This document shows positions 1-1,689 of a stretch of DNA of 1,689 bases, piece after piece. The notes below the pieces were generated by a model. That model had not been told where the DNA came from and made no database searches. It saw only the letters and a list, made by a program, of their open reading frames with translations. This DNA is from Naegleria gruberi. Its lineage: Eukaryota. The stretch's first letter is position 1, and each line of letters opens with the position of its first letter. The translations under genes and the position numbers were made by a program. The stretch lies in assembly GCA_000004985.1 (NCBI GenBank), contig GG739346.1. One strand, given 5' to 3'.

Positions 1-18
1 GGGTAAATGTAAGAATAG

Positions 19-189
19 AATCATTCCAACATTAGAACTCCACTCTCTCCATTAGATACAATTATCATTTTCAGAGTTGTTTATGATTCATTGAGTAAGG
101 CCAAGTTATTGGACAAGGAAAAATTACAAACTCGTTTAGAGAGTATTTTATTACTTCTTTCTCGTTGGCTTCAAAAGAATGGTGCCACT
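19..189 (+). CDS. Met-less frame-1 open segment of 57 codons upstream of the kinase core. It may be an upstream exon or part of a longer recoded ORF. It shows faint alphaE-like similarity to the kinase segment downstream.
   Basis: Translation is NHSNIRTPLSPLDTIIIFRVVYDSLSKAKLLDKEKLQTRLESILLLLSRWLQKNGAT, with no ATG and a protein-like composition. ESILLLLSRWLQKNG loosely parallels QLIDLLKDIHSKGF further downstream. Under TAA/TAG=Gln the frame is TGA-free from 1 to 396. Confidence 0.2.
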
Positions 190-265
190 TAATTGGATAA
201 GAGAAGTATGACTAAATTTGTTGAAGAGTGTCTAAAAGGTACTGATTATGCTAAGAAACTACTAG

Positions 266-801
266 CATGTTTCAACCAGTTCTTTATCAAATAAGTTTAT
301 ACAAATCCAACTTCCCAAAAGGAGGGAGTGTTTTCAATTAATAGATCTTTTAAAAGATATTCATTCAAAAGGATTTTGTCACAGAGATATTAGACCTGAT
401 AATGTTATGCGGACTGATGATGGTAAATTGATATTAATTGATTGGGGTTTTGCATGTGCAATTAATGAGACAACTTTTTTTGCTGGTATTATTTCTTTTT
501 GTGCTGATGATTATTAAGGTTGCGTTTTGGATCAAAATACTTTCATAAGACCGTACAAGAAAGAGTATGATTGTGAATCAATGCTAAAAATTTTTTGTTT
601 TTGGTTTGATGAAGATAAAATAGAAATATTATCAGTGAACAGATTAAAGCTAGAAATTTTTGGACTAATTTTAATAAGTTGAATTTCCAATCAATTTTAA
701 AACAAATTCATACCAAAAATTCTGATCCTTATGAAGTTCTTAAATCATTTTTACTAAAAACAATATTGATTAAAATAAGTTGGAATGTTGCTGGATAATA
801 G
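266..801 (+). CDS. Casein-kinase-1-superfamily-like protein kinase catalytic domain. The gene is disrupted or recoded: frame 2 runs 266-679 with an in-frame TAA at 515-517, and frame 1 runs 619-795 ending TAA-TAG at 796-801. It is either a pseudogene, a gene needing TAA-as-sense translation, or a gene with small introns.
   Basis: In frame 2 the motifs IHSKGFC-HRD-IRPDN (HRD at 380-388) and LILI-DWG-FA (DWG at 440-448) lie 20 residues apart, as for catalytic loop and DFG in ePKs. IHSKGFCHRDIRPDNVM closely resembles CK1 IHSKNFIHRDVKPDNFLM. The same frame continues after the TAA into an alphaF-like DCESMLKIFCFW (CK1 DDLESLGYVLMYF), 43 residues after DWG versus about 46 in CK1. Frame 1 then gives KQIHTKNSDPYEVLKSF (CK1 ...EKKMSTPIEVLCKGYP). 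Frame 2 has no ATG between 266 and 407 and no TGA in 212-679. Confidence 0.55.
329..514 (+). CDS. Best-supported core of the kinase domain: alphaE through the catalytic loop, DWG and activation segment, as a standard-code ORF segment ending at TAA 515-517.
   Basis: Direct translation gives CFQLIDLLKDIHSKGFCHRDIRPDNVMRTDDGKLILIDWGFACAINETTFFAGIISFCADDY. The HRDxxxxN and D[FW]G spacing and context are canonical for the eukaryotic protein kinase fold. Confidence 0.7.
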
Positions 802-1014
802 GAAATTTGAATCAATAACATCCTTAATGACATTTAGATTATCAGCCAAAAGGCATTCTGTTTTACTTATTACACTTCCCCTAAAATCATCATCTAGACC
901 TTGGATTAATCCATGTTTGACATCAAAATAAAACTCCAAGTCTTCACAAATGAAGAAATTATTCAAATCTTCAAGTGTTGGGATATATTGAACTGGTTCT
1001 GGAGTGTCTTCTCT
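754..1014 (-). CDS. Hypothetical protein fragment or exon. It is an open frame without an ATG, and the ORF-track start is a TTG.
   Basis: The 86-codon open frame reads REDTPEPVQYIPTLEDLNNFFICEDLEFYFDVKHGLIQGLDDDFRGSVISKTECLLADNLNVIKDVIDSNFLLSSNIPTYFNQYCF. It is bounded by TAG-TAA doublets in frame at both ends (rc of 1015-1020 and rc of 751-756). Its composition is acidic/hydrophobic and protein-like. There is no recognisable family signature. With TGA as the only stop it would extend to 745-1095. Confidence 0.3.
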   Translation of the reverse strand, partial: REDTPEPVQYIPTLEDLNNFFICEDLEFYFDVKHGLIQGLDDDFRGSVISKTECLLADNLNVIKDVIDSNFLLSSNIPTYFNQYCF

Positions 1015-1052
1015 TTACTAATTCACCAAAATTTCCTCTATTGCTAGCTCCG

Positions 1053-1072
1053 ATAGCTTTGTATAGCTTTGT
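1053..1072. repeat. Perfect tandem duplication of a 10-bp unit (ATAGCTTTGT x2).
   Basis: Read directly: atagctttgt at 1053-1062 and again at 1063-1072. It lies in the spacer between the minus-strand ORF (5' end about 1014) and the start of the 1174 ORF. Confidence 0.9.
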
Positions 1073-1173
1073 TTTATCAATAGTACATCTTCAATTCACG
1101 AAATTTTGATAAAAGTTGTGAATCTTTCTTAAAGCAGTTTATTCTGTCTCGTCTCTTTTTAAATTGTAATAAA

Positions 1174-1452
1174 ATGTGTGCCATGGTACTCTATTCAAAG
1201 AAAGCGCTGAGCAAGAAGTATTATAGAATCAAACGTAAAGAACTAAAAGAGAGGAAAGAAAAAAAGTTACAACAAGAATTAGTTGAAGCACAGAGCATGG
1301 TTGTGAATAATGCATCTGAAGCAGCCAAAAAAAGGTTAGCTGAAATTTGTAGATGGGCAGACGATGATACTGTGGATGTAGAAAAAAAACAAAAGTTGCG
1401 AGAGGTTTATAAACAATTATCAGCATCTAGAGCAAATAACACATTCGAATAA
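1174..1452 (+). CDS. Small 92-aa Lys/Glu-rich protein predicted to form a coiled coil.
   Basis: ATG at 1174 sits in an A-rich context (taataaaATG), and a second in-frame ATG at 1186 sits in gccATGg. The ORF is the longest standard-code ORF in the window. It reads KRKELKERKEKKLQQELVEAQ...KKRLAEICRWADDDTVDVEKKQKLREVYKQL, a run of charged heptad-like repeats. It stops at TAA at 1450-1452, with TAATAA at 1511-1516 and AATAAA at 1514-1519. The 5 TGAs inside 1174-1452 are all off-frame. Confidence 0.5.
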   Translation: MCAMVLYSKKALSKKYYRIKRKELKERKEKKLQQELVEAQSMVVNNASEAAKKRLAEICRWADDDTVDVEKKQKLREVYKQLSASRANNTFE

Positions 1453-1479
1453 TGCGTTCAACTTTGCAAAGCAATTCTC

Positions 1480-1495
1480 TTGTTGTTGTTGTGTG
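1480..1495. repeat. Short microsatellite (TTG)4 followed by TGTG, in the region downstream of the 1174-1452 ORF.
   Basis: Read directly: ttgttgttgttg at 1480-1491, followed by tgtg at 1492-1495. Confidence 0.8.
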
Positions 1496-1513
1496 CAATA
1501 AGTTGGTGTAAAT

Positions 1514-1519
1514 AATAAA
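1514..1519 (+). promoter_or_regulatory. AATAAA hexamer, a candidate polyadenylation signal for the 1174-1452 gene.
   Basis: The aataaa lies within gtaaataataaagc, 62 nt after the TAA stop. The sequence becomes T-rich and non-coding after it. AATAAA is frequent by chance in AT-rich DNA, so this is weak evidence. Confidence 0.25.
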
Positions 1520-1689
1520 GCTACTGCACGACCCAATCTAGTTTTGTTTTTAATTTTGATTGTTTAGAGAAGTTCAGATAAAATTCTTGACTTCTCAATA
1601 ACGATGTTTGTACTCAAGTCGGTTAGTGTTTTCTCAAAAATAATTAGCGATTAATTTGAAAAATATATTTGTATTGTTTTGTTTTGAAT

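Follow-up and report, generated by a model that had tools for sequence, protein, structure and literature searches.

The 1,689-nt stretch of DNA analysed here (the window, meaning the whole stretch) raises the question of what kind of genome carries a recognisable protein kinase domain among open reading frames (ORFs) that are short, lack Met and change frame. The preliminary description took the window for compact eukaryotic nuclear DNA that the ORF list under-describes, and offered ciliate macronuclear DNA and a Caenorhabditis pseudogene as models. Its remarks on the ORFs hold, as those called with translation table 11 are short, start mainly with TTG and lie in frames +1, +1, +2, +2 and +1; their lengths are in the range of shuffled sequences, except for the 122-codon ORF at 1084-1452. 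The window is very probably a nuclear fragment from a member of the Naegleriidae (Heterolobosea) that uses the standard genetic code and includes, at ~224-798, a dead copy of a lineage-specific kinase.

The eukaryotic protein kinase domain that had been described is present. Pfam Pkinase (PF00069) scored 38.2 bits on the window (cut-off 31.7; E = 1.4e-9), over profile positions 104-152 of 263 only, and the catalytic loop and the DWGFA motif can be read directly. A profile built from the family to which the kinase belongs gave 171.9 bits in frame +2 (E = 7.6e-54) and, in frame +1, 12.3 bits for the C-terminal helix (nodes 468-504). The profile test for this family, in which the motifs HRDIRPxN, (I/L)DWGFA, GTxSFCA and YDcEsLLK are required, recognised the window copy across the C-lobe, with the first two motifs readable. 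In the family alignment (A1), H, D, R, P and N of the catalytic loop are invariant columns, as are D287 and W288, and G289 is at least 90% conserved. When the Willaertia magna proteins KAL9653581.1 (P0002) and KAL9653573.1 (P0151) were used as tblastn queries, the main segment aligned with 50-52% identity over 137-142 aa (E from 1e-44 to 1e-51) and the C-terminal segment with 46% identity over 35 aa (E about 3e-8). Taken together, tblastn and the family profile trace the homology through frame +2, where it starts at 224/239 and ends at 643, and through frame +1 over 649-753. Relatives of window 302-514 were sought with HMMER throughout a set of 1.84 billion representative proteins; the best match, at 99% identity, was protein P0001 from the metagenome contig L002 (ENA ERZ929261, k127_543747), and the next was KAL9653581 of W. 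magna at 61%. The kinase core, the minus-strand ORF and the 92-codon ORF drew no matches in a word-indexed protein search, which missed even the 99% kinase relative.

Comparison with L002 shows damage in the window copy. A blastn alignment pairs window 282-739 with L002 881-1351 at 97% identity; the differences are three substitutions and one 13-nt gap, and L002 is probably from the same species as the window or a sister species. The contig retains the N-terminal domain, the kinase N-lobe and the 13 nt, whereas the window copy is without all three; upstream of window position 282 the two have either no relationship or far greater divergence. At 515-517, where the window has TAA, L002 has TTA, W. 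magna P0002 and P0151 have Leu ('ADEYLGC'), and other members have Leu or Ala, never Gln. Conversely, L002 has an in-frame TAA of its own where the window reads CAA (533-535). Across the site of the 13-nt deletion L002 reads SVNRLKKAEGARNFW in one frame. In the window the deletion moves the kinase from frame +2 to frame +1, and frame +2 read straight past 647 stops at TGA 680-682.

On its sequence, the kinase copy is thus a truncated pseudogene that would have no capacity to make a kinase, because it is 5'-truncated and has nonsense codons, an insertion and a frameshifting deletion. In the proposed reading, truncation or replacement upstream of about 224-282 would have removed the N-terminal domain, the glycine loop and the lysine strand. 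The nonsense codons at 233-235, 263-265 and 515-517 would interrupt the frame, a 6-codon insertion is present as well, and the 13-nt deletion after 647 would shift the frame. An ORF finder would see such a dead kinase as short Met-less ORFs in frames +2 and +1, and the short mixed-frame ORFs of the window are accounted for in this way; the table-11 ORF list does under-describe the locus. More generally, where Met-less ORF pieces in different frames surround a recognisable domain, the cause can be a pseudogene and not a recoded genome. Coordinates of the features are collected in Table 1.

Table 1. Features of the 1,689-nt window.
Feature	Position	Strand	Description
Upstream sequence	1-223		ORFs 91-192 and 193-294; chance-level TTTTCAG (68-74)
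Putative kinase pseudogene, main segment	224-647	+	Frame +2; hinge, alphaE, catalytic loop, DWG, activation segment, alphaF region
In-frame TAA	233-235	+	Faces residues of the Ser/Gly region in homologues
In-frame TAG	263-265	+	Adjoins 6-codon insertion not present in homologues
Catalytic loop HRDIRPDN	380-403	+	Read from sequence, frame +2
DWGFA, family form of DFG motif	440-454	+	Read from sequence, frame +2
In-frame TAA	515-517	+	Nonsense change from TTA (Leu); TTA in L002
Junction of 13-nt deletion	647-648	+	L002 has AGAAAGCAGAGGG here (blastn gap)
Putative kinase pseudogene, C-terminal segment	649-798	+	Frame +1, ARNFWTNFNKLNFQSILKQIHTKNSDPYEVLKSFL..., stop TAA 796-798
70-codon ORF, gene status unsupported	754-966	-	No Pfam match, no homologues
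92-codon ATG-to-TAA ORF	1174-1452	+	Lys/Glu-rich product; stop-to-stop run of 122 codons
Weak, frameshifted likeness to family N-terminal PD-(D/E)xK-like motif block	1434-1600	-	EVK ... VVQ*LYYL ... THYSNVLF

The N-lobe and the N-terminal domain are gone from the window copy, as the homology begins only at about 224-239. In the plus-strand frames upstream of about 215, the family profile gave no signal for the N-lobe (glycine loop G-x-G-x-T-S-x-V, invariant Lys, Glu). Nothing similar to the N-terminal PD...ExK...GQxxxY domain occurs in 1-223, and an intact copy would place that domain beyond the 5' end of the window. Neither the family profile, tried for both the N-lobe and the N-terminal domain, nor Pfam found anything in 1-223; when 1-238 was aligned to the profile with frameshifts allowed, P was 0.45, and alignment of the DNA of 1-223 with L002 scored no better than shuffled sequences (36 vs 35.2 +/- 5.1). 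A glycine-loop-like 'VIGQGKITNSF' in frame +3 was discarded, being unsupported by the profile and by frameshift-tolerant alignment.

Other explanations for the changes of frame were also discarded. An intron does not account for the shift from frame +2 to +1 near 650, where no GT...AG of suitable length is present and L002 shows a plain 13-nt deletion. A Euplotes-type +1 frameshift at AAA-TAA (289-294) conflicts with the frame +2 homology to W. magna, which runs upstream to about 224-239, and a 34-nt intron at 295-328 joining frame +1 (91-294) to frame +2 fails likewise, since that homology crosses the point. The frame +1 ORFs in 91-294 are not kinase, because the frame +2 homology extends past them.

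The kinase belongs to a family that is lineage-specific and multi-copy. In intact members a PD-(D/E)xK-like domain at the N-terminus, which in some is Pfam DUF6826, precedes a protein kinase domain of eukaryotic type, and Pkinase was matched in 13 of 13 members. Those with a named host are from W. magna or Naegleria fowleri only, on chromosomal contigs that range from 125 kb to 1.2 Mb. One W. magna locus was inspected, and its neighbouring genes are typical of eukaryotes (Ras/F-box, SAM, Mpv17/PMP22); intergenic gaps of 35-46 nt were measured at one W. magna locus, and two W. magna paralogues, 97% identical, lie 18 kb apart on opposite strands. The L002 protein is 60% identical to KAL9653573 over 318 aa (E = 1e-138). 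Six further contigs (L004-L009) encode intact relatives of 244-535 codons, with no in-frame stop and a TAA terminator, in which Gln is specified by 11-34 codons, all CAA or CAG. In L007 a reverse-transcriptase (RT) ORF lies 79 nt downstream of the family gene on the same strand. An RT gene beside a family member ends on TAG, and the intact genes including RT span 244-642 codons. In L006 a TnpB/Fanzor-like gene adjoins the family gene, and contigs L008 and L009 stop just past their own family genes, as contigs do at repeats.

The preliminary description had derived very short spacers from the ORFs. The convergent overlap that it reported is real, as the ORFs at 679-798 (+) and 754-966 (-) share 45 nt, but the gap from the 5' end of the minus-strand ORF (966) to the ATG at 1174, given as about 160 nt, is actually 207 nt, and the spacers depend on ORFs of unproven gene status. 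The length of the minus-strand ORF is within the shuffled range. An extended minus-strand frame (748-1095) was rejected as a degenerate kinase (tblastn E = 0.4; no profile support; frameshift-tolerant P = 0.12). The ORF at 1174-1452 is possibly a real small gene: the stop-to-stop run in which it lies has P about 0.02 in whole-window shuffles, and its ATG stands in the A-rich context that had been noted (aataaaATG), with no Shine-Dalgarno sequence. It gave no Pfam match, no homologues and no record in an exact look-up. By a codon-usage likelihood for which 2,265 codons from related contigs served as the training set, and under which even the true kinase frames reach only z 0-1.2, its frame is the best of six, weakly (z = 1.5), and the minus-strand ORF has z = 0.24. 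At 1434-1600 on the minus strand, hmmsearch of the six-frame translation found the likeness to the family N-terminal domain at E = 0.026-0.05, and the frameshift-tolerant score of 20.0 exceeded the null (14.0 +/- 1.9; P = 0.013-0.033, uncorrected). The stretch may, with low confidence, be a remnant of a second family copy.

Several short sequence signals occur in the window. The TTTTCAG at 68-74, previously read as a nematode-type splice acceptor, is present, but one copy is found against 0.94 expected (at least one in 128 of 200 shuffles) and it lies outside the kinase homology. Similarly, an AATAAA does follow the TAA at 1450-1452, at 1514, yet the window has five where 5.8 are expected. The sole plus-strand AGGAG/GGAGG (320-325) lies within the kinase reading frame. 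Sigma-70-like promoter matches number 12, where shuffles give 7.8 +/- 2.3, nothing unusual in AT-rich DNA, and the three terminator-like matches (0.5 expected) are overlapping versions of one site at 310-329 in the kinase frame. No tRNA or rRNA genes were found in the window, and its only Rfam match, to RgsA, is not credible (18 bits, where the gathering cut-off is 88).

The origin of the window is read from the kinase only, given that no rRNA or housekeeping gene is present and the ORFs at 754-966 and 1174-1452, without homologues, give no taxonomic confirmation of their own. The window was probably recovered in an environmental metagenome. The only close relatives of the kinase are heterolobosean proteins and metagenome contigs, and the G+C content of the window (30.3%) compares with 29-33% in the environmental contigs that carry the kinase family. 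Counting against a Naegleriidae origin, the W. magna loci have a G+C content of ~19-21%, and the closest named relative of the window copy is 50-61% identical and within a paralogous family. A bacterial, archaeal, phage or organellar locus is nevertheless hardly credible: the top homologues are eukaryotic, blastn of the window against phages and plasmids gave no match, and GTDB genomes and IMG/VR viral contigs, scanned by protein pattern and by exact DNA, yielded nothing. In a microbial-mat contig the catalytic loop was matched once, weakly (37% over 30 aa). The claim that the window is eukaryotic nuclear DNA is thus upheld, and its best matches are not bacterial, phage or organellar. Just as far-fetched is a nematode (Caenorhabditis) pseudogene of the CK1 family with TTTTCAG as acceptor. 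A pseudogene, a secondary thought in the preliminary description, it proved to be, and the heptamer exists, if only at chance level and away from the kinase; the close homologues, however, are heterolobosean and the nearest solved structures are CK2alpha. In CK1 kinases, subdomain VIII carries S-I-N where other kinases have APE. The family has G-T-x-S-F-C-A-D in that segment and the window G-(T/I)-I-S-F-C-A-D-D-Y, with S-I-N absent. Ciliate macronuclear DNA (code 6), like the window, is AT-rich and gene-dense with TAA and TAG within apparent frames, and were TAA and TAG read as Gln and TGA alone as stop, frame +2 would be continuous over 212-679, up to TGA 680-682 (156 codons); the TAA of L002 also sits where the window has CAA (Gln). 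A ciliate or other code-6 organism is still very unlikely, as is an uncultured amoeba that decodes TAA as a sense codon. The TAA at 515-517 faces Leu and the TAG at 263-265 adjoins an insertion missing from homologues, the intact relatives use only CAA and CAG for Gln and terminate on TAA, and a changed code repairs neither the 13-nt deletion nor the absent N-lobe. Stretches of 110-260 codons without TGA can be found in eight frames, some of them antisense, and the continuous code-6 ORF therefore carries no weight. No ciliate proteins are among the close matches, and the telomeric repeats C4A2/C4A4 (G4T2/G4T4) that had been proposed as a check are absent at both ends of the window, its single TTGGGG being internal, at 442, within the DWG codons. 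Of the compact-protist comparison, gene density remains plausible for heteroloboseans, as the short gaps in W. magna illustrate, and the ciliate macronuclear part does not. The window is eukaryotic, neither ciliate nor nematode, its genetic code is the usual one, and it is biologically ordinary.

Two further readings leave the organism in place and concern the state or the carrier of the kinase. In one, which is improbable, the kinase is intact in vivo, and low-coverage short-read assembly of a multi-copy family has produced the stops, the 13-nt gap and the break at 282. Near-identical copies do exist (L002 and the W. magna paralogues, both at 97%), the identity to L002 ends abruptly at 282, which could be a chimeric assembly junction, and two contigs end in repeat-like fashion right after the family gene. 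However, this reading requires an error at each of four independent lesions, 13-nt deletions are seldom invented by short-read assemblers, and the N-lobe is undetectable in any frame. Moreover, homology to W. magna persists at lower identity upstream of 282, with its own TAG and 6-codon insertion, and the upstream part consequently looks like a diverged paralogue and not like a join to unrelated DNA. The lesions thus appear, from these alignments, to be true mutations and not assembly errors. Slightly less probable still is that the window is part of a mobile element, a giant virus or an endogenised viral segment of a heterolobosean amoeba, with the kinase as decaying cargo. The RT ORF and the TnpB/Fanzor-like gene beside other family members would fit, as would the 5' truncation of the window copy and the possible second remnant on the other strand, and the AT-rich, dense layout is equally typical of giant viruses. 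Yet no reverse transcriptase, transposase or viral hallmark gene is in the window, tblastn of the L007 RT and L006 TnpB-like proteins against it gave nothing, repeat and tandem-repeat scans of it showed nothing notable, terminal and inverted repeats included, and the W. magna copies sit among ordinary eukaryotic genes. The family profile matched IMG/VR only in catalytic-loop stretches of 25-40 residues, in three contigs. We infer that the host is a heterolobosean itself and not a virus or element of one.

For the family as a whole, the nuclease-like and kinase genes might, as a tentative and rather unlikely idea, be cargo or the first ORF of an undescribed family of selfish elements or conflict systems that spreads and decays in heterolobosean genomes. 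The window would then be a 5'-truncated dead copy, perhaps with an older opposite-strand remnant at about 1434-1600. Hints in this direction are the L007 RT, the L006 TnpB/Fanzor-like gene, the 97% W. magna paralogues and the Crinkler-like architecture, and, in addition, that the near-identical window and L002 copies bear different nonsense mutations. A literature search on DUF6826, and on Crinkler together with Naegleria, found no reports. The possible link between the family and mobile elements seems the only point worth following up; the window contributes an environmental relative of Willaertia and Naegleria and a record of decay inside a lineage-specific nuclease-like and kinase family, and its biological value is modest.

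Among known systems, one possible likeness is to Crinkler-type effectors. The family resembles what we take to be the Crinkler (CRN/CR-type) effector modules of REase-fold and kinase domains, a lead only. The likeness would be one of architecture alone, a PD...ExK...GQxxxY block and then a kinase, and unlike such modules the window is without the nuclease-like domain. The C-termini of CRN proteins include REase and kinase domains (PMC12957317). In a PDB search with the family profile the best match was CK2alpha (CMGC group; E = 1.6e-20, N-lobe through DFG region), and the best 60 matches were all to CK2alpha or CK2alpha'. The two share the eukaryotic protein kinase fold and an HRD-type catalytic loop, a kinship at superfamily level only; the family has Arg for Lys in HRDxKxxN, DWG and not DFG or the DWG-like context of CK2, and an extra N-terminal nuclease-like domain. 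Closer is N. fowleri FDP41_001855 (P0055, annotated 'protein kinase domain-containing protein'), which has the same two-domain architecture and the same kinase motifs and is 53% identical to the window core over 60 residues, but is far more distant overall: in alignment A1 it shares about 28% identity with W. magna P0151. W. magna P0151 (400 aa) and P0002 (339 aa) are of the same family as the window copy, with 50-52% identity over about 175 aa to the translation of frames +2 and +1, and share with it HRDIRPxN, IDWGFAC, FAGTxSFCADxYLGC and the C-terminal FWSNF...PY..LK.FL. Their genes are intact and single-exon, with the full N-lobe and the PD-(D/E)xK-like domain, whereas the window copy has neither.

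The Pfam Pkinase profile matched the window with 38.2 bits (cut-off 31.7, E=1.4e-9), over profile positions 104-152 of 263 only, and the choline kinase and APH families gave weaker matches. A genuine protein-kinase catalytic core is present there, with the two motifs tabulated below.

Catalytic-core motifs and small open reading frame in the window, with their coordinates
Feature	Position	Frame or strand	Remark
HRDIRPDN	380-403	frame +2	protein-kinase catalytic core
DWGFA	440-454	frame +2	protein-kinase catalytic core
92-codon ORF, Lys/Glu-rich product	1174-1452	+	ATG to TAA

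When window 302-514 was used as the query in an exhaustive HMMER scan (1.84 billion representative proteins), the top match was P0001 (99% identity), which is encoded by metagenome contig ERZ929261 k127_543747 (L002). The second match was P0002 (Willaertia magna KAL9653581, 61% identity), and the remaining named matches of full-length type were W. magna or Naegleria fowleri proteins. The high-scoring multi-stretch matches, generic multi-kinase proteins from a range of organisms, were uninformative. A further W. magna protein, KAL9653573 (P0151), was 60% identical to P0001 over 318 aa (E=1e-138). A word-indexed protein search with the 126-aa kinase core gave 0 matches, despite the presence in the collection of a protein 99% identical to it over 71 aa; negatives from indexed searches are weak evidence for such sequences, since the exhaustive scan found a protein that the index missed. 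Phage and plasmid collections gave no blastn match to the whole window, nor did protein-pattern and exact-DNA scans of IMG/VR and GTDB genomes find any, and a metagenome scan gave a single weak match, to the catalytic loop. The view in the preliminary description that this is eukaryotic nuclear DNA, for which a track of bacterial ORFs is a poor description, is therefore correct, as the close named relatives are W. magna and N. fowleri proteins.

Homology to W. magna runs in frame +2 from ~224/239 to 643, and is interrupted by stops at 233-235 (TAA), 263-265 (TAG, adjoining a 6-codon insertion) and 515-517 (TAA), the last of which is TTA (Leu) in L002 and also Leu in W. magna. Across window positions 282-739, L002 is 97% identical, differing by three substitutions and one 13-nt gap. 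The gap corresponds to AGAAAGCAGAGGG, present in L002 and missing from the window after 647, and owing to this deletion the homology leaves frame +2 for frame +1, where it extends from 649 to ~753, with a stop at 796-798. In L002, SVNRLKKAEGARNFW is read in a single frame. Upstream of ~224, the family HMM detected no N-lobe or N-terminal domain in any frame, a frameshift-tolerant profile alignment gave P=0.45, and DNA alignment with L002 was no better than with shuffles. Given this, and the start of the frame +2 homology at ~224/239, the frame +1 ORFs at 91-294 lie outside the kinase. A frameshift or intron joining these ORFs to the kinase was considered and is unnecessary, as they are not kinase. 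As judged from the sequence, the kinase copy is best read as a 5'-truncated pseudogene, an ordinary one from a kinase family specific to this lineage, in amoeba DNA. At 474-515, in the region coding for the kinase activation segment and just before the TAA at 515-517, there is an imperfect tandem duplication of 21 nt (2.0 copies, 85% match). Since L002 has the identical sequence there, the duplication belongs to this lineage of the gene and is no lesion of the window copy.

That these lesions reflect an assembly artefact or chimera is very unlikely, because four independent errors would be required. A variant genetic code is scarcely credible. A single observation speaks for it, an in-frame TAA at L002 1132-1134, where the window has CAA (533-535), L002 being otherwise open to the contig end; a code with TAA as Gln would also produce this difference at that single site. 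Two of the three substitutions separating the window and L002 over 458 nt introduce a stop codon into one of them, which fits relaxed selection on both. The lineage uses the standard code, since the family genes that are intact, in W. magna and in related contigs (244-535 codons), specify all of their 11-34 Gln residues by CAA or CAG, include no in-frame stop and terminate with TAA. Ciliate-type code 6 (TAA and TAG as Gln, TGA as the sole stop) was also considered from frame +2, which is open from 212 to 679 under this code. TGA-free runs of similar size occur in many frames, antisense included, and the open frame is therefore not evidence. The ciliate and nematode sources first proposed, and the implied ciliate code, were not correct, as the relatives are heterolobosean and the lesions explain the ORF pieces. 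An origin from a ciliate, a nematode or a prokaryote is effectively excluded.

A mobile-element or giant-virus context for the window is highly unlikely. Family members in other contigs do adjoin a reverse transcriptase (RT) ORF and a TnpB/Fanzor-like gene, which hints at such a context, but the window includes nothing of this sort, and viral contigs essentially lack the family. The RT ORF is found in L007 (ENA ERZ27237364 k141_644980), where an intact family gene, P0061 (238-1842, 534 aa, DUF6826 and Pkinase), shares its strand with a 641-aa RVT_1 ORF (1921-3846) that lies 79 nt downstream and includes a YLDD-type RT and then an RNase H-like region. Logan contigs L008 and L009 carry a family gene identical to P0061 and end ~70 nt after it, as at repeat boundaries. 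In L006 (ENA ERZ27237420 k141_148421), apparently a eukaryotic contig from an amoeba, ~640 nt separates the family gene P0152 (906-2489) from a gene of 563 aa on the opposite strand (3128-4819), and the HTH_OrfB_IS605 and Cas12f1-like_TNB domains of the latter identify its product as TnpB/Fanzor-like.

Willaertia belongs to the Naegleriidae, within Heterolobosea (Discoba), and its family copies, in a contig of 233 kb, have Ras/F-box, SAM and Mpv17/PMP22 genes as neighbours. Genes at this locus are in some cases separated by just 35-46 nt, and a dense layout is therefore normal for the lineage. In W. magna JBEGDK010000051.1, P0002 (L003 10001-11218) and P0151 (L004 10001-11203) are 97% identical paralogues on opposite strands, ~18 kb apart, and both have SAM-domain genes next to them; this arrangement points to a segmental, inverted duplication of recent date. 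For P0002, translation from the locus is not colinear, and the gene model therefore probably includes an intron or a modelling artefact. The G+C content of the window (30.3%) is like that of environmental contigs with family members (29-33%), and W. magna loci have 19-21%. W. magna itself is thus probably not the source, which is most likely an unsequenced relative. One of the environmental contigs, L005 (ENA ERZ27237200 k141_188570, 30.6% G+C), has exactly the length of the window, 1689 nt, a coincidence since the sequences differ (37% amino-acid identity in the kinase).

Bacterial-code ORFs in the window are short, in mixed frames and mostly with a TTG start. No tRNA genes, credible Rfam matches or telomere-type repeats at the window ends were found. 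TTTTCAG, taken in the preliminary description as a nematode-type signal, and AATAAA, also treated as a signal, both occur at chance level (1 seen against 0.94 expected, and 5 against 5.8, respectively). The spacer put there at ~160 nt measures 207 nt, and the convergent overlap is real as 45 nt at 754-798, though for one partner, the minus-strand ORF 754-966, neither Pfam, homologue search, shuffled lengths nor codon usage supports a gene. The Lys/Glu-rich ORF may be a real small gene. The stop-to-stop run around it, 122 codons, is long for the composition (P ~0.02), and a codon-usage test, though weak, ranked its frame first among the six (z=1.5); no Pfam match or homologues were found for it. 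At its start, ATGTGTGCCATGG (1174-1186) includes plus-strand ATG codons at 1174 and, in frame, 1183; on the minus strand, an ATG at 1184-1182 is the start of a 35-codon ORF (1077-1184, minus). If both are real, these divergent ORFs overlap by 11 nt. On the minus strand at ~1434-1600, a weak, frameshifted likeness to the family N-terminal motif block (EVK, VVQ*LYYL, THYSNVLF) was detected by hmmsearch (E=0.026-0.05) and frameshift-tolerant alignment (score 20.0, null 14.0 +/- 1.9, P=0.013-0.033, uncorrected). The likeness may be the trace of an older, second copy in decay that starts past the right end of the window and is read leftwards.

The thirteen members in family alignment A1 share a PD-(D/E)xK-like N-terminal block (PD...ExK...GQxxxY), which Pfam DUF6826 matches in five (residues 115-207 of P0061). 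Invariant in their kinase domain are G-x-G-x-T-S-x-V, K, E, H-x-D-x-R-P-x-N and D-W, with a nearly invariant G after D-W. The solved structures closest to the family profile are CK2alpha (E=1.6e-20), and the CK1 label initially applied has no support. In its architecture, nuclease-like block plus kinase, the family resembles the REase and kinase modules of Crinkler-type effectors, to which it may be linked. Crinkler-type C-termini with such modules exist (PMC12957317).
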